Positions 7,915 to 19,882 of a stretch of DNA of 19,882 bases are shown here, piece by piece. The translations under genes were made by a program, and so were the position numbers. Each line of letters begins with the position of its first letter. Position 1 is the first letter of the stretch. The notes beneath the pieces are model-generated. The model saw only the letters and a list, made by a program, of their open reading frames with translations. It searched no databases and was not told the DNA's origin. Source of the DNA: a virus (lineage: Duplodnaviria > Heunggongvirae > Uroviricota > Caudoviricetes); IMG/VR virus record IMGVR_UViG_2548876858_000016. One strand, given 5' to 3'.

Positions 7915-9438
7915 ATGAAACGTGTAATCAGCTACATCAGATTCAGTTCTGAGCGACAAGCCAAAGGCGACTCACTACGCAGACAGTCTAAGATGGTTAA
8001 TGACTGGCTTAAGGCTCATCCTGAGTACTACCTTGACCAAGATTTATCCTTCCGTGATTTGGGGGTGAGTGGGTTCACTGGTAAGCACTTGAAAGGTGGC
8101 TTAGGTGACTTTTTAACCGCTATCGAGAAAGGGCTTGTTAAAGCTGGTGATACGCTCTTGATAGAATCTCTTGACCGTCTGTCACGTCAAGATGTAGACC
8201 AAGCAAGTGAGCTACTCAGAAACATTCTTCGCTCTGGTGTAGATGTGGTCACCTTGTCCGATGGTGAACATTACACACGAGAATCTCTTAAAGACCCGTT
8301 AGCTCTGATTAAAAGCATTCTGATAATGCAGCGGTCGCATGAGGAGAGTTTGAGGAAGTCTGAGCGTATACAAGCTGCATGGAACCGTAAAAAAGAACTC
8401 ATCTCTGAAGGTATCAAGATTTCTAAACGTTGTCCTGCATGGCTTAAGCTTAATGATGACCGTAAAAGCTTCTCTGTAATCCCTGAGAAAGTGGAGACTG
8501 TGAAGAGGTGCTTTCAGCTACGGTTAGAGGGTAAGTCTATCTGGGAGATTGTCAGGACTCTTAATGATGAAGGTCACCAGACGCTTAACCAATATAAAGC
8601 GGGTTCATTTGGTCAAACCTCAGTACAAGACCTTCTGAAAAATCGCTCTGTAATTGGTTACTTCACACCTAAAGGCTGTGAAGAGATAGCTGATTATTAT
8701 CCTGCAATTATAGATGAAACAACATTCTACAAAGTCCAGCAACTATCATATGCTCGTTACGGTAGAAAACCTGCTTCAGATAAGCCAATGGCTGTGAATC
8801 TTTTCAAAGGTGTTATCCGTTGCTCTGAATGTGGTCATGCTCTGATTATCACAGGCTTTAGCGATACAAGAAACGGGATTTATCGCTGTCCCCTTCGTAA
8901 TGAAAACCGTTGTAGTGCTAAAGGGCTGTCACGTAAGCAAACCGATGGTACATTGCTTACCCTGCTATCTCGTCTTGACCGATTTGATAGCGATACGACG
9001 AATACCATCGATACACTGAAGTTACACCGTGAACACATCTCAAGCAATATTGAGAAGCTGGTACAGCTATCACTTGAAATTGAAGATTTGTCAGCTATTA
9101 CCAGCAAGCTAAAACAACTAAAGAATGAGCTATCACAGGTTGATGCGGATATCGAGAAGGAGACACAACGCCTTAAATCTATTGATGTGGGGTGTTTGTC
9201 TGATTGTGACTTGACTACAAAGGCGGGAAGGATTGAAGCACAACTGATAATCAAAAGTGCTGTTAAAGAGGTCGTTTTAAATACTGCTAAACGTCGATGT
9301 AAAGTGACTTTTCACAACGGTAAGGTAATTGACCTACCAATAACAGAAAACCCCTCAGACAACGTTACAGAGGCTATACAGTCGCTTTCTGAAGTCACTG
9401 AGAGGGGTTTAATAGATGTTGATGAGGTTATCATATAG
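7915..9438 (+). CDS. Large serine recombinase (resolvase catalytic domain + recombinase domain + zinc-ribbon)
   Basis: 507-aa ORF; N-terminal YIRFSSERQ with catalytic Ser; Cys cluster CSECGH...YRCPLRNENRC; C-terminal coiled coil. Confidence 0.85.
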   Translation: MKRVISYIRFSSERQAKGDSLRRQSKMVNDWLKAHPEYYLDQDLSFRDLGVSGFTGKHLKGGLGDFLTAIEKGLVKAGDTLLIESLDRLSRQDVDQASELLRNILRSGVDVVTLSDGEHYTRESLKDPLALIKSILIMQRSHEESLRKSERIQAAWNRKKELISEGIKISKRCPAWLKLNDDRKSFSVIPEKVETVKRCFQLRLEGKSIWEIVRTLNDEGHQTLNQYKAGSFGQTSVQDLLKNRSVIGYFTPKGCEEIADYYPAIIDETTFYKVQQLSYARYGRKPASDKPMAVNLFKGVIRCSECGHALIITGFSDTRNGIYRCPLRNENRCSAKGLSRKQTDGTLLTLLSRLDRFDSDTTNTIDTLKLHREHISSNIEKLVQLSLEIEDLSAITSKLKQLKNELSQVDADIEKETQRLKSIDVGCLSDCDLTTKAGRIEAQLIIKSAVKEVVLNTAKRRCKVTFHNGKVIDLPITENPSDNVTEAIQSLSEVTERGLIDVDEVII

Positions 9439-9452
9439 TTGAGATTCTATCG

Positions 9453-10226
9453 TCAGTAGCGCTTATTCGGATTCACCGAAAACTTCTTCAAAGTACTACC
9501 TGTACCAGCATTATTAAGCACCTTTGAAGCTTGCTCATTAGCGGCATCTGAGAAGGTGCTTTTTCCGTTCTTAACTCTGACATTCCTACCACAATTGATA
9601 CGGGCTTGAAGTTGCTCATTAGAAAGTTCACTCGTAGAGCGATTATATAGCTCCTGACACATCAACATACCGTTACCTAAGCTTGTCGTAGTGTTCCCTG
9701 TATTCTTTTTGCTGGTAGCACCACCATCATTTGTAGTAGCTGTCTTTCCAGTAGCAGCCGAAATATCAGTTTGACCCACAATAGCTTTAAAGTTAATTTC
9801 CTGAAAAGTTAGCTGGATTCTTAGACCATTTGAAATACCAACATCTTTAGAGGCTTTAAAGCTTGTAATAATGGAGTCATCAATTTTAATACCATCTTTA
9901 CAGATGACCGAAATAATCTGCTTCTGGTCACGCCAGTTTTCAAGAGTGTCGATGAAGTTCTCCACCAGCTTATTATCTCTTGAGATAAGGATACTACCGG
10001 ATTCACCAACCACAACCACACCACTGATTGAAATAGTTCTTGGTGAACGCATTACATTATCTGTTACAGTCTGCCCTGATTGCATATTTTGAGTGGTCAC
10101 CATCATAGGGCTGTCATATTCCATCTGTTCAGTTGCTGATAAGGTTAAGAAATTATCTGGCTGTCCTTGTAGATGGAAGTAAACACCATCTTTACCAGTG
10201 TAACGAAGCTGACTAGTGTAAATCAT
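9453..10226 (-). CDS. Hypothetical protein (257 aa); possible tail component by position downstream of the tape-measure-like gene
   Basis: Track ORF; GGAGA SD 5 nt upstream of ATG; convergent with the recombinase gene. No domain recognised. Confidence 0.55.
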
Positions 10227-10309
10227 TAAATTCTCCTTTGATTTCAGAGACTTAGTGTATTTTAATCATTTTTAACCAAGCCTTTGATATATAAGTGTTT
10301 TCTCTGTTA

Positions 10310-10376
10310 AGCGTGAGCTACGTAAAAAATAATTTTTGGTGGGTATATCTGTTCAGAAGATTTCACGTAGCACACG
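10310..10376. promoter_or_regulatory. Copy A of a duplicated intergenic regulatory element (AAGCGTG..TACGTAAA..GTGGGTAT..CAGA..TTTC..ACGTAGCACAC)
   Basis: Shares ordered conserved blocks with 12501-12594; arms CGTGAGCTACGT / ACGTAGCACACG form an 11/12 inverted repeat; lies upstream of gene 9453-10226. Confidence 0.5.
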
Positions 10377-10389
10377 GATATATAAGAAA

Positions 10390-12480
10390 TCATTCTTCCT
10401 CTGGATAGCTTGAACTTAAGAGCATATCCTGCGTGAACTGGTCATTAGCTGATTGATTGAAAGTAAAGAAAGCTGGTTCATCCGGTCTAACAATTGCTTC
10501 ACCAGTGATATTAACTGACAAGGGCTTCTTAGCTTCTACTGTTAAAGCATCAACCTTGCGTGATAGCTCACTAATAGTCATTGCAAGTTGAGCATTACTA
10601 TTAACCATGTCACCCGTAATAGCTGGTGGAGTTGATTGTGTGTTATTTACGAAGTTATTCATCGGTTCTTGGGAGTTAGCAATTTTATCAGCTGCACTAC
10701 TAAACCAACCTTTAACATCGTCCATAGTGAACACTGGTTTAAGTCCAGACTCTTTAGCTAGCTCTGGTAATTTAGCTTGTGCTTCCATTCGTTCAGGTGT
10801 AGAAGCTAATCTTTCATAACCTGCATAGATAGCACTACCAGCTAATAGCATATTCATAGGGTTTAGTCTTGATGGTTTCCCATTCTTTCTATTCACGTTA
10901 TCCGCTGTGGTATCAGCGACCTGACCTAATCTTGTGATAGCAGTCATAAGCCCGTAAATACTTCTGGTTACACCAACAACTTTATTCACAGCAATAACAC
11001 CAGCCAAGACTTTTAAACTATTAATCAAGCCAGAACCTAAAGCATCAACTACTTTCTTTTGCTCATCGGTTAAACCACGATAAGCTAATGTCACCTCATC
11101 GAAGAATGCTCTTACCCTGTAGCTGATATCAGTCAATGAATCGACACCATGCGACATATCGCTCATCAAGCTACCAAGAGATTCACCAAGACTTTTACCA
11201 CTTCCACCAAGAGCGTTTAAAAGCGTTGTTAGGCTTCTTGTGAAATCTTGAAGACCATTTTCAGAACCTCTGAAGATACTATCAAGCGTGGTATTCCAAG
11301 AGTTTTTCAAGTTCCCTAGTTGTGCCTGTGTACTTTCTGAAATGGCTTTCCAGCCACCTTTAGCGGTGATTTGTCTATTCAGTTCCTGAGTGACCTTCTG
11401 AAGAGTATCGGCAGATTTTAAAGCCCCCTTCTTCATGGCATCAAATAATTCCTGTTCACTCTTTCCGGTTGCTTTAGCGAATACCTGAACCATACCAGGA
11501 ACAGCTTCAGCCAGTTGCCCCTTAAGCTCTTCAGCCATAATCTGACCCTTACCAGCCATCTGTGATAATGCTGTCAGTGCTCGCTTAATCTCTTCTTCAC
11601 TTCTCCCCATCAGACGAGCATAGCCAATCATATTTTTAAAAAGTTCTTCAGAACCTTGAATACCCATAGACTCTTTAGCTGAAGCACCAAAACCAGCAAA
11701 CTGTGATTGCAGTTCAGCGATATCTAAACCCGTTGTTTGAGCTAATGACTTTGTGAACTCTTTTACCTGACCTGCATCTTTATCAAATACGAAATCAATT
11801 GAACGCTCAGCACTTGCACGCTGTAAACCAATTTCCATAATCTTCTGATAACTGGCTAATACAGCCTGCATTGAGATAAATGCACCTGCTGTTTTAACTG
11901 CTGCTGAAGACAGGTTATCAAGACTATTAGCTGCTCTGTCAGCATTAATGCTGGTGGATGTATGACCTCTGGCTTTAGCAATTGCTTCTCTGACTGAAGC
12001 GTTTAACTGAGCTAACTTCTCATTGAATTTTGAAGAATCCATTGACCCGGCTTTAGCAGATAGCCCGTAAAACTGAGATTTGATGTATTTCTGCAAAATA
12101 GGGTCAAAGCCTTTTAGCTTAGACATATTAGCTGAGTAAGCCGCTGTGATTGCTCTGTTGCCGCTAATTAGTGGCTGTCTTGGCTGTCTAAGTGGCTTTA
12201 AAGTATCCTCAATTTCCGTTTTAATCTTAAACGCTCTAGTGTTTTTAAGACGCTGCTCAATCTTGTCAAAGGTCTTATTAAACTTCCTTTCAAGTTGCCC
12301 TAAAGAACTTGTCAGATTGCTGTCAAGTTGCTTGGTATCGACCTTAAACGCTCTATTCAAATTGCGTTCAATTCTTTGTGCTGACTGCAAAGCTGCCTTT
12401 TCAACTCTTTGCAGTCCCTTAATAACGTTTTCATTGAAGCCTAGCTCAACGATAAAACTATCAACTGTGAATTTGCTCAT
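10390..12480 (-). CDS. Phage tail tape-measure-like protein
   Basis: 696-aa ORF; central region (GSEELFKNMIGYARLMGRSEEEIKRALTALSQMAGKGQIMAEELKGQLAEAVPGMVQVFAKATGKSEQELFDAMKKG) matches the tape-measure core pattern; coiled-coil N-terminus; GAGGTG SD. Confidence 0.7.
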   Translation of the reverse strand: MSKFTVDSFIVELGFNENVIKGLQRVEKAALQSAQRIERNLNRAFKVDTKQLDSNLTSSLGQLERKFNKTFDKIEQRLKNTRAFKIKTEIEDTLKPLRQPRQPLISGNRAITAAYSANMSKLKGFDPILQKYIKSQFYGLSAKAGSMDSSKFNEKLAQLNASVREAIAKARGHTSTSINADRAANSLDNLSSAAVKTAGAFISMQAVLASYQKIMEIGLQRASAERSIDFVFDKDAGQVKEFTKSLAQTTGLDIAELQSQFAGFGASAKESMGIQGSEELFKNMIGYARLMGRSEEEIKRALTALSQMAGKGQIMAEELKGQLAEAVPGMVQVFAKATGKSEQELFDAMKKGALKSADTLQKVTQELNRQITAKGGWKAISESTQAQLGNLKNSWNTTLDSIFRGSENGLQDFTRSLTTLLNALGGSGKSLGESLGSLMSDMSHGVDSLTDISYRVRAFFDEVTLAYRGLTDEQKKVVDALGSGLINSLKVLAGVIAVNKVVGVTRSIYGLMTAITRLGQVADTTADNVNRKNGKPSRLNPMNMLLAGSAIYAGYERLASTPERMEAQAKLPELAKESGLKPVFTMDDVKGWFSSAADKIANSQEPMNNFVNNTQSTPPAITGDMVNSNAQLAMTISELSRKVDALTVEAKKPLSVNITGEAIVRPDEPAFFTFNQSANDQFTQDMLLSSSYPEEE

Positions 12481-12500
12481 TCATATTTTTCACCTCTTTA

Positions 12501-12594
12501 AGCGTGTTGTACGTAAATTCTATTTTTCAGTGTGGGTATTAGCTTTACAGATTTCATGAGGATAATTCTTATCCGAATCATCACGTAGCACACA
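12501..12594. promoter_or_regulatory. Copy B of the duplicated intergenic regulatory element, upstream of the tape-measure-like gene
   Basis: Same conserved blocks as 10310-10376 with a ~27-bp insertion; contains CACGTAGCACACAGGAT (12582-12598). Confidence 0.5.
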
Positions 12595-12622
12595 GGATTC
12601 GATAGAAGACTATCTCATATAC

Positions 12623-12663
12623 AAAAAAGGGAGAGCTACCGATGTCACTCGATAATCTCTCCC
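12623..12663 (-). terminator. Candidate intrinsic terminator on the minus strand (GGGAGAG / CTCTCCC stem, 21-nt loop, U6)
   Basis: 7-bp GC-rich stem at 12629-12635 / 12657-12663; on the minus-strand transcript it is followed by UUUUUU (plus-strand A6 at 12623-12628). Loop is long for a terminator. Confidence 0.4.
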
Positions 12664-12688
12664 GTTGATTTTTACCCAACCAATCTTT

Positions 12689-12892
12689 TTACCTAACCAG
12701 ATAATAATTACCATCTTCACCGACAATCTGACAATCACTTGGTAATTTATCAAGACACCATTTAGCGATTCTTCTGATTCTATTCTTTTGCTTAGAGGTG
12801 GATGATTTGATTCGTTTTGGTTTGTTGGGTTGTTCTTTCAATCGTTCACTAATTGCTTTAATAAGCTCATAGCGTTCTGTTAAATCAATCAT
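12689..12892 (-). CDS. Hypothetical small basic protein (67 aa)
   Basis: Track ORF; strong AGGAGGTG SD; Lys/Arg-rich centre (KPKRIKSSTSKQKNRIRRIAK). Confidence 0.5.
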   Translation of the reverse strand: MIDLTERYELIKAISERLKEQPNKPKRIKSSTSKQKNRIRRIAKWCLDKLPSDCQIVGEDGNYYLVR

Positions 12893-12916
12893 TCACCACC
12901 TCCTTTTAATTCATAG

Positions 12917-13657
12917 TTAAAGTGCCTTTGCATATTTCTGAGAAATCTTCACTAACTGCTCAATATCAGCCTGCATAGCAATTTTCTTCTGTGATTCATA
13001 TTCACTAACAAGCTCTTTCATAGTATCAAGCTCTTTTTTAAGCTTTTGCTTTAACTTATCCAGCTTATCGGAGTAATGCTTAGTCAGATTAGCTTCAGCT
13101 AACTGAAGAATCTCTTCATCTGTTTTGTTAGTCATCAGGATATATGAGCCTGTACCACGTGAAGCTTGTCTGACATCCATTAATCGAAAACCGTCAGGAA
13201 TACTTTGAAGCACTTTTGGAACATTCTCTCTTGCTGTACCGAAACCATTGTTGTAATTTCCTTCGTAATAGATAAACGGGTTTGTCTTAAGCTCATATTC
13301 AATATCATATTCTGAAGGTTTCTGAGTTTCTTCGAAGTTTTTGACAACATCATAAGCATTATCAAGCTTGATGCGCTGCTCTTTTAGTAGTGGATAGTAC
13401 TTCCTCTCAAGTGCAATCAGAGCTTCTGTCTTGCAAACATCAGTCATTTCCAGAGGCTCAGGATTGATATATTCAAGATTATTGGCTGGAACAATCTTTC
13501 GCAGCCTTTCTTTTTTGGCCTCTTCATCTGCAAGCTTGGCAATAATTTTGTGATAAGGTTTCATATGTGCATACTCATCTCCTTCATCAGTAAAATGCAA
13601 ATCATATGCACAAGGTTTTCTATCAACAATCGCTTCATGTTCATCACGGATAGACAT
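12917..13657 (-). CDS. Hypothetical protein (246 aa), charged with coiled-coil C-terminus
   Basis: Track ORF; GAGGAAAA SD ~9 nt upstream. Confidence 0.55.
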   Translation of the reverse strand: MSIRDEHEAIVDRKPCAYDLHFTDEGDEYAHMKPYHKIIAKLADEEAKKERLRKIVPANNLEYINPEPLEMTDVCKTEALIALERKYYPLLKEQRIKLDNAYDVVKNFEETQKPSEYDIEYELKTNPFIYYEGNYNNGFGTARENVPKVLQSIPDGFRLMDVRQASRGTGSYILMTNKTDEEILQLAEANLTKHYSDKLDKLKQKLKKELDTMKELVSEYESQKKIAMQADIEQLVKISQKYAKAL

Positions 13658-13692
13658 TATTATTTTTCCTCTTCTAAGATAATTTATGTTTC

Positions 13693-13774
13693 AGTTTTTA
13701 AAAAGCACACCTGACAGCCTACGAACTTAGAAGAGACTTAAAAGGCGGTTTGCCAAGTGCGCTTTTTAAAAGCT
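13693..13774. repeat. 18-bp inverted repeat (AGTTTTTAAAAAGCACAC ... GTGCGCTTTTTAAAAGCT, 16/18) with ~47-bp spacer
   Basis: Seen directly in the sequence, inside a 470-bp ORF-free gap between minus-strand genes. Confidence 0.6.
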
Positions 13775-14130
13775 GAAAAAGCCCTAGATAACTAAAACGC
13801 TATAAAGGGCTAAGGTGAAGAAATTAAAGAACATCCAAAGGATTCAATAACGAATGAACAAAGACTTTTTGAGATAGCCTATCTAGTGTGGGCTAAATAG
13901 GCCATGACGAAAAGCATTGCACCTTTCCAACTCAGAATAACTATCATTGATGTAGAATGATTAATAGTTTAATTCAGGAAGAGTTGCTCTCCCCTATTAC
14001 CATCATCTCATGCTTAAGGTTATTTGTCAACAGCTTTTAACAGATTGATAACATCAATTCTTATTTACTGTGTTACCCACCCAGCAACCAACAAATAAGC
14101 CAAGCAACGTCCAAGCAATTATTAAGCCCA

Positions 14131-14454
14131 TTAGTGAACCCTCACGGAATCCGTAACCAAAATATTATCGCTGTACAGGATTGTCACAGCACCTTTCAAA
14201 AATCGCTCTGGGGAAATACTGTATTTGTTCGTTTGCTCAATAACCAATCTTTTCATATTACTGTCTGTAATTGGTAACATCATTCGAGGCTCGTTAAACT
14301 CCACCGAGTGAATAAAGTCAGAGATGCTTTCCGCATTATCAGCCATTAACTCTAACAACTTATCAAAGTCAATGCTAACACCTACATCAGTGAAAGCCTG
14401 AATCATCATGGCGGTGTCGGTATCAATAAAAATCTGTAGTGGGAAATTATTCAT
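14131..14454 (-). CDS. Hypothetical protein (107 aa)
   Basis: Internal Met of track ORF 14131..14565 (MNNFPLQIFIDTDTAMM...), with AGGA SD 9 nt upstream. Confidence 0.5.
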   Translation of the reverse strand: MNNFPLQIFIDTDTAMMIQAFTDVGVSIDFDKLLELMADNAESISDFIHSVEFNEPRMMLPITDSNMKRLVIEQTNKYSISPERFLKGAVTILYSDNILVTDSVRVH

Positions 14455-14592
14455 TTTTAAAATCCTATAAAAACACATCTTAAATCTGCCAAAATAGCCA
14501 TTCTGAGGCCAGTAACCATGCGGGTTACAGAGGGAGTGAGACACCTTAGTAATAGGGTAGCTCATCTTTGAGTCTCACTCATTCTCACAGAC

Positions 14593-14979
14593 TTACACAG
14601 ACGCTTTAATCTTGTAGTATTGACTACGTGATAAGCCGTATTTCTCAGAAATATAACTTTGTGATTGTCCTTTGGTGATTGCATCAATGATTAAATCTTT
14701 ATCGTATCTGTTACCGTTGGCTTTGTGCTTGTCACTATTTTTAATAGAGTTGAAGTTCTCCATTAATTCAATGGCGTCTTTAAGGTCGCTTTCGTAAGCA
14801 TAATCAAAACCTCTGATAAACTCGAAATCACCATTATCTTTTTGTGCTTCAGCCCAGATATCAAATCTTGAGGCTAATTGCTGGTGGGTAAACTTGGGCT
14901 TATTGGTTTGTGTTACGTCTTTCCAGACCTTACCGTCAAATCTTACCAAATGGTCACGATGCTTATAAAAATCATACAT
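14593..14979 (-). CDS. Hypothetical protein with C-terminal HTH (128 aa)
   Basis: Track ORF; GGAGG SD; C-terminal ITKGQSQSYISEKYGLSRSQYYKIK resembles a resolvase/Hin-type or small-terminase-type HTH. Start overlaps the upstream stop (TAATG). Confidence 0.55.
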   Translation of the reverse strand: MYDFYKHRDHLVRFDGKVWKDVTQTNKPKFTHQQLASRFDIWAEAQKDNGDFEFIRGFDYAYESDLKDAIELMENFNSIKNSDKHKANGNRYDKDLIIDAITKGQSQSYISEKYGLSRSQYYKIKASV

Positions 14980-15257
14980 TAAACCTCCATTGCTAATTTG
15001 TGAATTTTGATACTTAGTAATCTTGCTAAATCCAGTCCAAAGGCATTTAGAGCCTTCAGACTATCAAGGTCATCTTGCTTAATCCTGATATGGTGTCTTG
15101 CTGCCTCTAAACGACTATTAAGCAAATCCTGCTCGTTAATATCACGGTTAATTGCAAGCTTCATCACTGCTGAGTGTGGCAGACCTGTAATGTTTTTGAT
15201 TCGGTTAAGTTCGTCAAAGGCTGTCTTTGTAACTCTGGTTAAAGTGTGCTTAGTCAT
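14979..15257 (-). CDS. Hypothetical protein (92 aa)
   Basis: Track ORF; tightly packed between neighbours in one minus-strand operon. Confidence 0.5.
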   Translation of the reverse strand: MTKHTLTRVTKTAFDELNRIKNITGLPHSAVMKLAINRDINEQDLLNSRLEAARHHIRIKQDDLDSLKALNAFGLDLARLLSIKIHKLAMEV

Positions 15258-15260
15258 TAT

Positions 15261-15824
15261 TTAAAATCCTTCTGCTTGTGCGTACACGTCAAATTCAAAG
15301 TCTGGCTCACTGCTTGTAAGACTGATATTACCAACGGTAATATGATGCTCGACAATACCAATTAACTTTGCGCACATCACAGCAAGTAATGCGCAATAGG
15401 CATCGCTTGGTAACTCATGGCTTAACCTGGTTGCCTGACGCTGGAGATGGTTTGTCACGGTAGCTGAGTTAATTTCATCAAGATTCTTTAGAAGATAAAA
15501 CAATTTCTTGTTGTATTTTGGGTGCCCCTCACTTCTGCAAAATCCGATAAGAATGTCGTCAAGCTTGCTCGGTAATTGCTCGTAGCTGTCAAAGTTAGCC
15601 AGATAATTCTTGATGCTGTTCTTTGTTGTTTTGCGTACTGACATATAACGACTCCTCGGTGTAATTGCCCGAATTACTTCGTCAATGCCTTTGCGTTCTG
15701 CTCTGGTGAACTTGGGTGCTTCGTGGCTGGTGGGGGAGTTTGTGTAGCTGTAGGAGTTGTAGGAGTTGTATCTGTTACGTTGTCTCGATGCCTGAAGCAT
15801 CGCTCTAAATTCTCTGTCGTTCAT
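15261..15824 (-). CDS. Hypothetical protein (187 aa) with in-frame 9-bp tandem repeat
   Basis: Track ORF; AAGGA SD 11 nt upstream; GTAGGAGTT x2.3 at 15750-15770 encodes NSYNSYSY. Confidence 0.55.
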   Translation of the reverse strand: MNDREFRAMLQASRQRNRYNSYNSYSYTNSPTSHEAPKFTRAERKGIDEVIRAITPRSRYMSVRKTTKNSIKNYLANFDSYEQLPSKLDDILIGFCRSEGHPKYNKKLFYLLKNLDEINSATVTNHLQRQATRLSHELPSDAYCALLAVMCAKLIGIVEHHITVGNISLTSSEPDFEFDVYAQAEGF

Positions 15825-15910
15825 TCATAAGCTAGTCCTTATAATTGTTAATTCTCTGTTAACTTATATAGACAATACTAGCATTTTCAAAGACTAATGT
15901 CAAGCATTTT

Positions 15911-15940
15911 TTAACATTTCATTAACATCTGTGGTATAAT
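15911..15940 (+). promoter_or_regulatory. Candidate sigma70 promoter with extended -10 (TTAACA-18-TGgTATAAT)
   Basis: TATAAT at 15935-15940 preceded by TG at 15932-15933; TTAACA at 15911-15916. Confidence 0.5.
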
Positions 15941-16122
15941 GGTTCTATGGGGAGAGTAAAATATAAAGGCGTGGCTATGAGAGTGGTCATATGGTTATTG
16001 CATTGCACACAGACCTCTTCAATCGCTCTGTAACGAGTTAAATGGCCTCTTCAGGTCAACATATAAGGTCAGGTACTTTTTTGTGTCAGAATGCGATTGA
16101 GAGCGTCTTACAAGGAAAACTA

Positions 16123-16299
16123 ATGGTAAATCTCCCTCCTGAGCTGGGGTCACCTGATGTATGGGCTGGTGGAGGTGTTGGGCTGATTGCAGGTCTGCTA
16201 CTTCGCTACGTCCTCGTCAGAGTGCTTGTTGTCTTTAAACTGTTCGGTCGTACATGGACGCTTGACCTTAAGGATAACGACCACACAGAACCCCGTTAA
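16123..16299 (+). CDS. Candidate small single-TM protein (58 aa)
   Basis: Internal ATG of track ORF 16042..16299, with AAGGA SD 6 nt upstream; hydrophobic segment VGLIAGLLLRYVLVRVLVVF; downstream of the 15911-15940 promoter. Confidence 0.35.
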   Translation: MVNLPPELGSPDVWAGGGVGLIAGLLLRYVLVRVLVVFKLFGRTWTLDLKDNDHTEPR

Positions 16300-16340
16300 A
16301 CTCCCTTCAAAACCCCCTGTACGTGATGGTATAGGGGTAT

Positions 16341-16357
16341 CTTTAGCATTTTGTGCT
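16341..16357. promoter_or_regulatory. Copy 1 of 17-bp dyad motif CTTTAGCAWWWWGTGCT
   Basis: CTTTAGCATTTTGTGCT; internal dyad AGCA-N5-TGCT; same motif recurs at 17471-17487 and inverted at 17501-17517. Confidence 0.45.
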
Positions 16358-16525
16358 ATCTATTAATAAATAGCTTGACATAACCGGAAAACTGAATCTA
16401 TCAAGTATTCACCCCTCTGACAGTAATTTCTAAAAATGCTTATTTTTCAATGAGTTGTAATTAGCCAATATAAAGGACTGACAAGACTCTTCACAGAGAA
16501 CTTTCAAGACTCACTAAGACACAAG

Positions 16526-16562
16526 GCGATAACCCCAGACAGGGAGAGCCTCCTTCTTAACC
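16526..16562. repeat. Direct repeat copy A (GCGATAACCCCAGACAGGG...TCTTAAC)
   Basis: ~75% identical to 16696-16732; contains a CCCC-N5-GGG mini-hairpin. Confidence 0.5.
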
Positions 16563-16695
16563 GACTTCTTAAACAATCTTTACAGACCCCCGTTCACCAG
16601 TCTCAATATTTTTATTTCTCGCTCTTCGTTTTTTGCTCGTTTCTATTATTGAGGGGGTTTGAAAAACCTCTGTAAAATAACCCTTCCAGTAAAAA

Positions 16696-16732
16696 GCGAA
16701 TAACCCCAGAAAGGGGAAATCGCATCTTTAAC
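16696..16732. repeat. Direct repeat copy B (GCGAATAACCCCAGAAAGGGG...TCTTTAAC)
   Basis: Pairs with 16526-16562; contains the perfect hairpin CCCCagaaaGGGG. Confidence 0.5.
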
Positions 16733-16763
16733 ATTCTCGTAATCAGTGCTCTATATGAGAACT

Positions 16764-17432
16764 TCAGCCCAACCTTTGAACAATCCTGTAAGTGGTGCTT
16801 AGAGGTATTCTTAGCGATTCTGCGATGCTCTTGATGGGTTGCCCTTGGTCATACATTTTAATCAACCTGTCAAGCGTCTGTGCATCGTGCATATGAGGTC
16901 TTCCACGTAAACCACCCCTGTTAACCACGGCAAGTAAAAGCATTGTGTCACCACAATAGATTGTCTGGGTAACTTCAACTTTCGGTTTGCGGGGTGTGTT
17001 CCTGTATATCAAAACGCAACTTGGAAACGGTGAGCGCACTACAACACCTCTCTTTCCTGCTGGTGGAAGGTATTTGACTGCTCGGTGTAACGTTCGAATC
17101 TCATGCAGGAAGGGGTTTGTATATACACACCGAAGCCAGTAAGTTGTCTTTGACCTGAGCGGAACCAGACATACACACACATCAGCTTCAGGGGCTTTTA
17201 AGAGGAACTTTTCAGCCATGCTAAACGGCGGGTTAACGAAGACCCGTTCACCAACCCATGATTGATTGTGAATATCATCGGTGAACCGTGGCAACAATGC
17301 GTCATACTCAGTTGCAGCACCATCTAGACTGAAGTTAAACTCACGATGCAGGTTATGAAATAAACGATACGGTGTACGCCAGTCATCAGAACCACCATGA
17401 TAACGACCAACATTGATTATTGGATGCGACAC
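16764..17432 (-). CDS. Phage Dam-family N6-adenine DNA methyltransferase fused to a C-terminal resolvase/Hin-type HTH
   Basis: 222-aa ORF with GTG start (AGAGGGG SD ~10 nt upstream). N-terminal ~150 aa shows DDWRTP...F.F.LDGAA...NPPFS...SPFPS, which I recognise as the phage Dam MTase pattern; C-terminal GRPHMHDAQTLDRLIKMYDQGQPIKSIAESLRIPLSTTYRIVQRLG resembles a serine-recombinase HTH. Confidence 0.7.
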   Translation of the reverse strand: MSHPIINVGRYHGGSDDWRTPYRLFHNLHREFNFSLDGAATEYDALLPRFTDDIHNQSWVGERVFVNPPFSMAEKFLLKAPEADVCVCLVPLRSKTTYWLRCVYTNPFLHEIRTLHRAVKYLPPAGKRGVVVRSPFPSCVLIYRNTPRKPKVEVTQTIYCGDTMLLLAVVNRGGLRGRPHMHDAQTLDRLIKMYDQGQPIKSIAESLRIPLSTTYRIVQRLG

Positions 17433-17470
17433 AAGCGAAGCGCCCCTCTTAGTATATTTCTTAATCGTCT

Positions 17471-17517
17471 CTTTAGCATTTAGTGCTTTTTGTTAAGTTT
17501 AGCACTTTTTGCTAAAG
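17471..17517. promoter_or_regulatory. Inverted pair of the 17-bp dyad motif, upstream of the Dam-HTH gene; candidate operator
   Basis: CTTTAGCATTTAGTGCT (17471-17487) and reverse complement of CTTTAGCAAAAAGTGCT (17501-17517), 13-bp spacer; 40-85 bp upstream of the GTG start; a minus-strand TATACT -10 candidate lies at 17451-17456. Confidence 0.45.
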
Positions 17518-17944
17518 ACAAAAGCATTGACAAAATGGTAGGATTGTTCACATAGCCCTTACTTAACAGACTCTTAAGAGCTTTGAAACAGCCTGTTTAA
17601 CAAGGTCACTACCTCTGGTCTTATCGTTCCCTTCTTTCTAGGTAGTCATCTGTTAAGAACTTTTCAGTTTTATTCTTAAGATAATTGTTAAGATGATACT
17701 CTCCCTTCGGGTTATATCGTATCTCTCCTCCCGTTAAATATCCCTTCACAGTCAGACTAAATAACACCTGTGTAGTTTCTTGGTAGAATCTTTCAAGGTA
17801 ACTTAACTCTGAGTTTATGAAGTTGACCTATGAGATAGACTCTACCGAATCTGTTAGTCAATTGTTGCTTAGGTGCTGCTAAGGCTTACTTAGTGGGAAG
17901 AGAGGGAATATGTGACCATAGGAACCCCTCCTGTTAAAAGCTTC

Positions 17945-17972
17945 TTGACGTTACTATCTCGATATGTATAAT
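17945..17972 (+). promoter_or_regulatory. Near-consensus sigma70 promoter (TTGACG-16-TATAAT)
   Basis: TTGACG at 17945-17950, 16-bp spacer, TATAAT at 17967-17972; no credible ORF downstream. Confidence 0.5.
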
Positions 17973-17979
17973 GGCTTAC

Positions 17980-18148
17980 TGTACTAGGTTTACTTCCAAA
18001 GCAACCAAGCACACTCTCTATGGCAGTGTCCAGCGAGGTAAGGTCGTGTAGGGTGCGGTTCGGTGGGGTAAGGTTTGGTGCGGTATGGGTGGATTGTCGT
18101 AGCCACGTTAAAAATCGACTTATAGGGACTCTTTCGGGAGTCCTTTTT
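17980..18148 (+). ncRNA. Candidate ~170-nt small RNA bounded by promoter and intrinsic terminator; G-rich internal tandem repeat
   Basis: Starts ~7 nt after the -10 and ends at the 18125-18148 terminator; contains GGTAAGGT...GGTGCGGT twice (18046-18095); the only overlapping ORF (18020-18298) reads through the terminator and looks non-coding. Confidence 0.4.
18125..18148 (+). terminator. Rho-independent terminator (GGACTC-tttcgg-GAGTCC + T5)
   Basis: 6-bp stem at 18126-18131 / 18138-18143, T-run 18144-18148; plus-strand specific. Confidence 0.6.
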
Positions 18149-18298
18149 AGTTTGTATAAAATCTGTACAGTAACTTTTCAGAGTCTGAAAATTTTTATAA
18201 ATATCGTAGTAACCCCTCTACATTCCCCTTCACCGATAATTTTCAAAAATATCTACACTCAATTGATGGCTGTTAAGTACCCCAGATTCACGATATAG

Positions 18299-18308
18299 CC
18301 CCCCCCCC
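18299..18308. repeat. Homopolymeric C10 tract
   Basis: Ten consecutive C in intergenic DNA, immediately upstream of a promoter-like TTGCAA-16-TATAAC (18310-18337). Confidence 0.9.
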
Positions 18309-19048
18309 TTTGCAAAAGCAGTTAAAATATCTATAACCAACCATTGACTTTCTTCATGATATCTGTTTAGCCCCACCTCAATAAGCCATCATCACACATC
18401 AAAGCATCTATCAAGAAGGTTTAACCTATCAATAGCTGTAACATTTTATAGTTCTGTGAAGTCCTATCCAGTTTTCTCTGTAACAGCTACAAACTTCTGT
18501 GACCTTATGTGTCAATGACTTATAAGACATGCTCTCAAGGTGCTGTATAGCCTCTTATCAGCCAATACACAAAACCCTTATAAATCAGTACTGATATGTA
18601 TACAGTATGTTTTTAACATAATAGCTGTTTTACGCACTAATAAGCACCTACGTAGATTCTGTATAGAGATTAAGATGTCTCTAAGTGATTTTTTAAGAGG
18701 AGATACGAAGGAACTATAACCATCACTTCATAACTTTCACGTAGGTAACTATTAAGTAGGTTGATAGTCACTTTGAGGGAATATTGATAGTGACCAACTG
18801 CATAGACACCGTTATATAGCCCTGTATATAGCACTATATGTAGTGTCTGGAGAGGGACGACTAACACGATATAGTTTACCCTGAAAAGAGGATTTACAGA
18901 TTCTCTATACATTTCAATAAGTTATGATAAAAAGGGGCTATGTCGATACTGTATAGAATCTGTGTAGGATTGCATAGATACTTGGAAAAATACCGTTAAA
19001 TTGCATAGGTACTAACCTGTTTATGTCCTGTTATTTACAGGCATAGCA

Positions 19049-19882
19049 TTATTGGTTAATTAATTCATCCGACTCTATATCATTACCTTTTTCTTTTTCC
19101 TTTTTAATTTTAGCCTCTACCATATCGAACATTTTCATTGTCTGTGATGAAGTTAGCTCTTTCTTTTGTCGTAGCGCGTTACGTATGGTAGAAGCTTCAA
19201 TATCAGAAACTGTTAAAAGTTCTTCTACCCTACTCTTCAATTGCTGTAATGAACGGCTATTATCAACTTTAAAGAAATCATCCATTACCTCAAGTGAGGC
19301 AACAATCAAATCCTGTAGTCTCTCTTTTTCTATCTCGATATTTTCAATGGTTTGTTTTTCTTTAGATACTAACTGCTTTAAATTATTAATTTCTTTCTGA
19401 ATCAGTTTCTTCTCTGTCTGTAGCTCTTCTGTGACCAGCTCTTCACGCTTACCACGCTCTACTTCCGCTTTAATATCAGCATCAATTTTAGCATTTTCTT
19501 TCTCTTCTTCTCTGGCAGCCCGAACCTTTAACCCCGTTAACCTGATTGAATCCAAGTATTCTTTTTCCTTTGTAAGATAAACATTTTCATTGTGTTTATC
19601 TGTAGCCCATTTTTGAGCAAGAGAAAGTAACCATTGAGCATAAGGAGTAATAACAGCTAGCACACCTCCAAAAAAGACAGGAGCAAGCAGATAATGAGCG
19701 TAAAAATATTCCTGAGATAGTATATAATCTATTCGAAACTTAACAGGCGCATCACTCATAAAGAGCATTGCTAAGTTAGGCCAGTTGAACCATACCCATG
19801 CAAGAATGATATATCCCCATAATGGGCTTTTAATCCTATCGTTTATTGCTTGCATAGTAGAATCTAACCACCCATCACTCAT
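19049..19882 (-). CDS. Membrane-anchored coiled-coil protein (two N-terminal TM segments + long K/E-rich coiled coil); start at or beyond window edge
   Basis: Track ORF; hydrophobic segments LWGYIILAWVWFNWPNLAMLF and YLLAPVFFGGVLAVITPYAQWLL, then heptad-like K/E-rich sequence. The Met at 19880-19882 is the last codon in the window, so the true start may lie outside. Confidence 0.55.
   Translation of the reverse strand: MSDGWLDSTMQAINDRIKSPLWGYIILAWVWFNWPNLAMLFMSDAPVKFRIDYILSQEYFYAHYLLAPVFFGGVLAVITPYAQWLLSLAQKWATDKHNENVYLTKEKEYLDSIRLTGLKVRAAREEEKENAKIDADIKAEVERGKREELVTEELQTEKKLIQKEINNLKQLVSKEKQTIENIEIEKERLQDLIVASLEVMDDFFKVDNSRSLQQLKSRVEELLTVSDIEASTIRNALRQKKELTSSQTMKMFDMVEAKIKKEKEKGNDIESDELINQ

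Follow-up and report, generated by a model that had tools for sequence, protein, structure and literature searches.

The C10 homopolymer at positions 18299–18308 (+ strand) of the 19,882-nt window, by which we mean the whole stretch of DNA analysed here, is probably a recent and neutral slipped-strand expansion of a conserved C5 core rather than a dedicated regulatory switch. The conserved element is C5 joined to TTTGCA, close to where a 176-bp non-coding linker (linker B) ends on the right, and in most copies its run of Cs is short, stable and interrupted (C-A-C5, C-A-C6 or C-T-C6). In the lineage of the window, whose nearest relatives (0.5% divergent) read CACCCCCC, the interrupting A would have been replaced by C and two further bases would then have been gained. 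Once uninterrupted and at least 7 bases long, such a run would gain and lose single bases by replication slippage, which would account for the pure C6–C10 runs found among near-identical copies. Since the promoter match is weak and at chance level, with the run outside its spacer, and since the site accepts 6–10 bases between conserved flanks, we infer that these length changes are of little or no regulatory consequence. As it stands, the run is of minor importance: one more slippage-prone homopolymer, of use chiefly for marking strains and as a caution in reading assemblies. The main value of the observation lies in its context: a widespread and unannotated island in yecE, a mosaic accessory region, and an sRNA-like gene held in common with Felixounavirus phages.

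An integrative element in yecE

The window is part of an E. coli chromosome. Positions 1 to ~7800 correspond to the integrase end of a phiP27/Stx-like lambdoid prophage, and an integrative element of ~12 kb inserted in yecE occupies positions 7915–19882 (2475–14575 in the relative L001). In the 99.5%-identical strain ECE228 the element sits inside yecE (DUF72). The yecE site is occupied in tandem, the integrase end of the lambdoid prophage lying directly beside the 12-kb element. At its two ends the element has a large serine recombinase and a 277-aa protein of unknown function. In addition to the serine recombinase, its genes encode a Dit-like tail protein, a tape-measure protein, five unknown proteins and a Dam-HTH fusion; no capsid, terminase or replication genes were recognisable in it. 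The fusion (222 aa, 16764–17432, minus strand; 11365–12033 in L001) combines a Dam-type methyltransferase with a C-terminal resolvase-type HTH domain, and the corresponding region of ECE228 is annotated as two separate CDSs. Searches of the neighbouring proteins with PADLOC, NCBIfam, Pfam and PHROGs returned nothing beyond Dam, HTH, tape-measure, Dit and recombinase matches, and no tRNA or tmRNA was found.

Of 5426 complete E. coli genomes, 515 contain parts of a 1.7-kb query spanning the tract region, in every case in the chromosome, and 256 contain an 84-nt segment with the tract. The element was found in ~5–10% of complete E. coli genomes and occupies other sites too, one copy lying beside yciI. 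No similarity to plasmids was found, and a 24-mer from the conserved block had no match among species-representative genomes. We found no description of the element in the literature on satellites, Felixounavirus, yecE or serine recombinases. One possibility is a phage satellite, perhaps one of Felixounavirus in view of the RNA-like module common to both; another is a conserved prophage remnant.

A mosaic non-coding region with an sRNA-like gene

The tract lies in a 1.6-kb stretch (17433–19048) whose largest ORF is of 92 aa or less, and which is therefore ORF-free in any useful sense. Substitutions follow a 3-nt period in the neighbouring 277-aa gene (p = 0.002) but not in this stretch (p = 0.45), which is genuinely non-coding; the idea of a hidden coding region was rejected on this ground and because no plausible small ORFs were seen. 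The sole ORF that crosses the tract, a 48-aa ORF starting with GTG on the minus strand, has its frame broken by the tract lengths of 6–10 seen in relatives. Among the seven relatives that possess a homologous 277-aa gene, 26% of non-coding columns were variable versus 13% of coding columns. The non-coding DNA had seemed better conserved than the genes, but only because the flanking genes have been replaced in mosaic fashion. Another stretch poor in ORFs, of ~940 nt (15825–16763), lies between a 187-aa ORF and the Dam-HTH gene.

Comparison of the relatives revealed that the non-coding stretch is itself a mosaic in which three conserved linkers, A (17506–17747), B (18157–18332) and C (18712–19038), stand between alternative cassettes. 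The A–B interval is filled by one of two units, the sRNA-like gene (the state of the window) or an AP2/HNH homing-endonuclease-like gene; the B–C interval likewise has two forms, 379 nt of non-coding DNA (again the state of the window) or a gene for a 191-aa small serine recombinase. Variants of these cassettes are also found at 9095–9936 of L021 and 6455–7209 of L025. Such an arrangement amounts to modular shuffling inside an "ORF-free" region. Just upstream of the start of the Dam-HTH gene (minus strand), a 49-nt near-perfect palindrome, TCTTTAGCATTTAGTGCT...AGCACTTTTTGCTAAAGA, spans positions 17470–17518 and could be an operator or a bidirectional terminator.

Upstream of the tract, an unannotated sRNA-like unit (17945–18151, + strand) comprises a promoter, a pentamer array, a hairpin and a terminator. 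Its promoter, TTGACG-16-TATAAT (17945–17972), matches the sigma-70 consensus at 11 of 12 positions and is the best of the region. The (NNGGT)n array (18037–18092) is followed by a hairpin with a conserved loop (~18096–18120) and by an intrinsic terminator (18124–18145 and a T run) that is the only terminator hairpin of the region. The predicted 174-nt transcript folds with a z-score of -2.7. Across island variants the sequence of the unit is nearly invariant, and its indels are multiples of 5. The array contains 7–15 NNGGT pentamers, in which positions 1–2 are near random and positions 3–5 are G in 87%, G in 99% and T in 89% of units, percentages that are somewhat inflated by a unit-calling procedure that demanded at least two of three GGT matches. 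The stem of the hairpin covaries perfectly, with GTCG...CGAC in 13 copies, GTAG...CTAC in 34 and none mixed, and it encloses an invariant 16-nt loop, TAGCCAC(G/A)TTAAAAAT. Lytic Felixounavirus phages share both array and hairpin, which lie there between genes (seen in 106 GenBank phage records and in IMG/VR contigs of 88–93 kb). Further copies of the sRNA-like unit were observed at 2360–2600 of L020 and in L058–L070. Searches against Rfam gave nothing at the gathering threshold for the whole window and nothing at E ≤ 5 for positions 17300–19200, and a phage copy of the array and hairpin returned chance-level matches only. The sRNA-like gene is a much better candidate for a functional non-coding gene than the site of the tract.

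The tract and its surroundings

A preliminary description of this DNA had reported a C10 run followed by TTGCAA-16-TATAAC in ORF-free DNA, and this was confirmed exactly as claimed. Immediately 3' of the tract come a T (18309), TTGCAA (18310–18315), a 16-nt spacer and TATAAC (18332–18337). The run is the sole homopolymer of at least 9 bases in the 19.9-kb window. In dinucleotide-preserving shuffles a C8 run was expected 0.12 times per shuffle, and the observed count was reached in 1 of 200; given this rarity, the C10 run is not a chance feature.

The tract stands near the right edge of linker B, which is present in every mosaic variant, is AT-rich with C far in excess of G on the + strand, and contains an invariant TTTTTATAAA, three AAATATC boxes and several C3–C4 runs. 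The last five Cs together with TTTGCA (18304–18314) are identical in all 44 distinct versions of the block. The invariance of this core, together with the presence of linker B in all mosaic variants, shows that the site is constrained and does something. Directly 5' of the tract, positions 18284–18298 (+ strand) read AGATTCACGATATAG, a conserved 15-mer that could be a protein-binding site and whose phasing relative to TTGCAA would shift with tract length. The motif ACGATATA recurs at 18866 (+ strand) and 17711 (minus strand); it is enriched in the region, as are ATAGCCY, AGATTC-N3-ATAG and CTGTATAG. These repeated motifs were considered as candidate binding sites, but chance alone would yield several triplicated 8-mers in 1.6 kb.

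Length variation in relatives

Alleles of the tract were read between ...CACGATATAG and TTTGCAAAAG in 56 homologous copies, drawn from 22 complete E. coli genomes, 32 metagenome contigs and 2 IMG/VR contigs. The commonest allele was CACCCCC (30 copies), followed by CTCCCCCC (8 copies), CACCCCCC (5 copies), C7 (4 copies), C9 (4 copies, in contigs from separate metagenome records), C8 (2 copies), C6 (1 copy) and CCCCCCCT (1 copy). The interrupted alleles CAC5, CAC6 and CTC6 accordingly make up 43 of the 56 and pure C6–C9 runs 11. Neither these relatives nor any of the 256 complete E. coli genomes with the 84-nt segment showed C10. About 230 of those 256 fall in the 90–95% identity band, where nearly all among the matches listed span 81 nt, the span that a 7-nt tract would give.

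The two classes of allele behave differently. CACCCCC remains constant up to ~23% divergence in the compared flanks, whereas pure runs vary within clusters that are less than 1% divergent: L045, L025 and L026 carry C8, C9 and C7, and in a second such cluster L046 and L047 carry C9 and C7. The C10 of the window was set against the CACCCCCC (CAC6) of its nearest relatives, L001 and L002, at 0.48% divergence. Over 2301 nt, the window and L002 differ by no indel other than the tract, and the same holds for L046 and L047 over 1249 nt. Pure tracts are known from at least three backgrounds, namely the window lineage, the serine-recombinase clade and E41/FAM21845, and the step in length between near-identical pure runs is 1–2 bases. 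As pure runs differ by 1–2 bases between copies less than 1% apart, slippage-type instability is confirmed as real for the uninterrupted alleles. The earlier statement that homopolymers of this kind are prone to length change thus holds, the uninterrupted tract being C6, C7, C8, C9 or C10 in near-identical copies; the length heterogeneity that was to be sought in other isolates was found among the pure runs, the interrupted versions being constant.

A second poly-C/G run, C6 or C7, was observed in the recombinase cassette at ~7030–7040 of L025 and also in L045, L026, L033, L034 and L044, where by our own reading it would occupy the Shine-Dalgarno position of the small serine recombinase gene. 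It differs by one base between near-identical metagenome contigs. Because this second run varies likewise, the variation of the tract looks generic; part of it may be generic homopolymer noise, whether biological or technical, and errors of sequencing or assembly could account for some length differences among metagenome contigs and long-read genomes.

The promoter-like match and the DNA downstream

The sequence TTGCAA-16-TATAAC (18310–18337, + strand) agrees with the sigma-70 consensus at 9 of 12 positions, TTGCAA contributing 4 of 6 and TATAAC 5 of 6. Position 6 of the -10 hexamer (-7), its most conserved position, is here a C. The site is missing from our promoter scan for want of that T, and the combination of near-consensus hexamers with A2 and T6 in the -10 element was not found at this position. 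Between 17300 and 19200 the scan returned 6 sites versus 6.1 expected from shuffles; when the A2/T6 rule was relaxed, sites matching at least 9 of 12 positions numbered 84 in the window and 16 in the 1.6-kb stretch. The promoter match is at chance level.

Across the 44 distinct block versions the -10-like hexamer reads TATAAC in 31, TATAAT in 2, TACAAC in 1 and TGTCAT in 7, and is deleted in 3. It is missing or replaced in 10 of 44, and is not conserved in the manner of a sigma-70 hexamer; the TGTCAT versions form the clade in which pure tracts are the rule. TTGCAA is kept in relatives as part of the invariant C5+TTTGCA core, and, in comparison with the recombinase clade, a mosaic breakpoint at ~18332, the first base of the -10-like hexamer, separates that hexamer from the conserved block. 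A weak promoter may exist in window-type lineages, as suggested by the conserved TTGCAA and by the perfect TATAAT of two relatives (L004 and L006). The tract abuts TTGCAA on its 5' side and lies outside the -35/-10 spacer, so that changes in its length cannot alter the spacing of the two hexamers. The converse arrangement, with the tract as the spacer of a minus-strand promoter, was considered because TTGCAA is self-complementary, but was rejected by inspection as only 9–12 nt separate it from TATATC.

Downstream of the promoter-like site there is no ORF of at least 60 aa and no conserved or credible small ORF. Folding of this DNA is unexceptional (z = +0.32 on the + strand and +0.64 on the other). 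RNAalifold applied to 23 distinct sequences gave a covariation term of -0.79, with compensatory changes in 1 of 80 pairs. A structured non-coding RNA downstream of the putative promoter is not supported by this ordinary folding and near absence of covariation, and no gene or RNA product under the control of the tract was found. The DNA 3' of the tract is in fact a swappable non-coding cassette of 379 nt (18333–18711), replaced in one clade by the gene for the 191-aa small serine recombinase on the minus strand. The recombinase cassette has res-like repeats upstream, seen by eye, and a terminator-like hairpin downstream.

Alternative explanations

The preliminary description had proposed a possible contingency switch for a downstream transcript, antisense or non-coding. 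In such a switch, gain or loss of Cs would shift the phase of an upstream site against the TTGCAA/TATAAC promoter, or alter an UP-like region, and so toggle a rightward non-coding or antisense transcript. The window does share some properties with contingency loci: its run is uninterrupted and above the slippage threshold, lengths vary (C6–C10) between copies less than 1% divergent, TTGCAA is conserved with TATAAT in L004 and L006, and a conserved 15-mer stands directly upstream, although its conservation is in part imposed by the search pattern. Against this, 43 of 56 relatives have interrupted and stable tracts, the run is outside the -35/-10 spacer, and the -10-like hexamer, which has no T at -7, is missing from 10 of 44 versions, including the very clade in which pure tracts are the rule; the second short C run, moreover, varies equally. 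The proposed downstream transcript fares no better, as no ORF, unusual folding or covariation was found there. To our knowledge, phase variation in E. coli normally proceeds via invertible DNA or Dam methylation, and homopolymer contingency loci are rare in this species. We therefore regard a phase-variable switch as very improbable. A fuller version, in which slippage in a phage-satellite-like island would re-phase the 15-mer against TTGCAA, or change Rho loading on (NNGGU)n readthrough RNA, and thereby toggle a regulatory or antisense transcript affecting the response to a helper phage, strikes us as exceedingly unlikely; if true, E. coli would offer an unusual instance of phase variation by homopolymer, located in a phage-satellite-like mobile element. 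A technical origin for the exact length, with a true tract that is shorter (C8 or C9, for example), is also improbable. Several sequencing platforms typically err in the length of homopolymers, none of the more than 300 related copies shares the C10, and the other C6/C7 run also flickers between near-identical metagenome contigs. Yet no other homopolymer indel separates the window from its 99.5% relatives in 2.3 kb, the ORFs of the window are intact where the Dam-HTH of L001 is annotated as two CDSs, pure C9 is present in four contigs from separate metagenome records, and the substitution of A by C is not an indel-type error.

It is likewise unlikely, if less strikingly so, that the tract belongs to a functional cis element of linker B, either a rut-like region at which Rho would load and end the transcripts of + strand cassettes, or a protein-binding or origin-like site marked by the AAATATC boxes and TTTTTATAAA, in which extra Cs would be tolerated or mildly modulatory. 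Poly-C is the preferred ligand of Rho. Nowhere in the window does C exceed G more strongly than on the + strand of 18160–18400 (C 24–33%, G 7–12%, ~3 sd above the mean), which covers linker B and the next ~70 nt and lies directly 3' of the sRNA-like gene, itself rich in G; this zone is C-rich, G-poor, untranslated and longer than the 70 nt expected of a rut region. This bias is kept in 30 of 30 distinct versions of the block even when the tract is left aside (C 0.25–0.30, G 0.10–0.16), but homologous sequences would keep their composition anyway. Linker B always lies 3' of a + strand unit, be it the sRNA-like gene or the AP2/HNH gene. In the alignment, no G+C-rich hairpin was seen by eye between the latter gene and the linker, but the sRNA-like gene already possesses a good intrinsic terminator. 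The invariant C5+TTTGCA of the 44 distinct versions, and the count of AAATATC, 4 in the 1.6-kb region versus 3 in the other 17.4 kb, would also suit a cis element; the repeated short motifs are, however, modestly above chance, and no replication gene was identified in the element. Such a reading draws on base composition and would be compatible with the C10 expansion being neutral.

Comparison with known systems

The poly-C tracts of Bordetella pertussis fim2 and fim3, and the poly-G/poly-C tracts in the porA and opc promoters of Neisseria meningitidis, are phase-variable. The present tract resembles them in being a G/C run of slippage length beside promoter-like hexamers, with a length that differs between close copies. 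In those systems, however, the tract separates the two hexamers, or else an activator site from the core promoter, the promoter is a proven one for a surface protein, and long pure tracts are the normal state. Here, the tract is upstream of a chance-level match, is mostly interrupted and stable, and has no product downstream. The likeness to rut regions consists in a ~240-nt zone of C far in excess of G on the + strand, directly after + strand transcription units. It is a likeness of composition, and in the window an intrinsic terminator already precedes the zone.

The linkers of the mosaic region resemble the PeSL promoter/stem-loop cassettes of T4-type phages, in that conserved intergenic linkers here too flank swappable cassettes; they differ in lacking a demonstrated promoter and stem-loop, and in belonging to an integrated island of ~12 kb rather than to a T4-type phage. 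The array of the sRNA-like gene recalls the binding sites of TRAP, a ring-shaped RNA-binding protein, through the 5-nt periodicity of its conserved triplet, and this is put forward as a resemblance only. Finally, the tract itself behaves like a neutral mononucleotide microsatellite: it is unstable once pure and about 7 bases or longer, it is stable when interrupted, and close copies differ by 1–2 bases. It departs from such a microsatellite in that its 3' five Cs and the adjoining TTTGCA are invariant, so that part of the run lies within a constrained motif.
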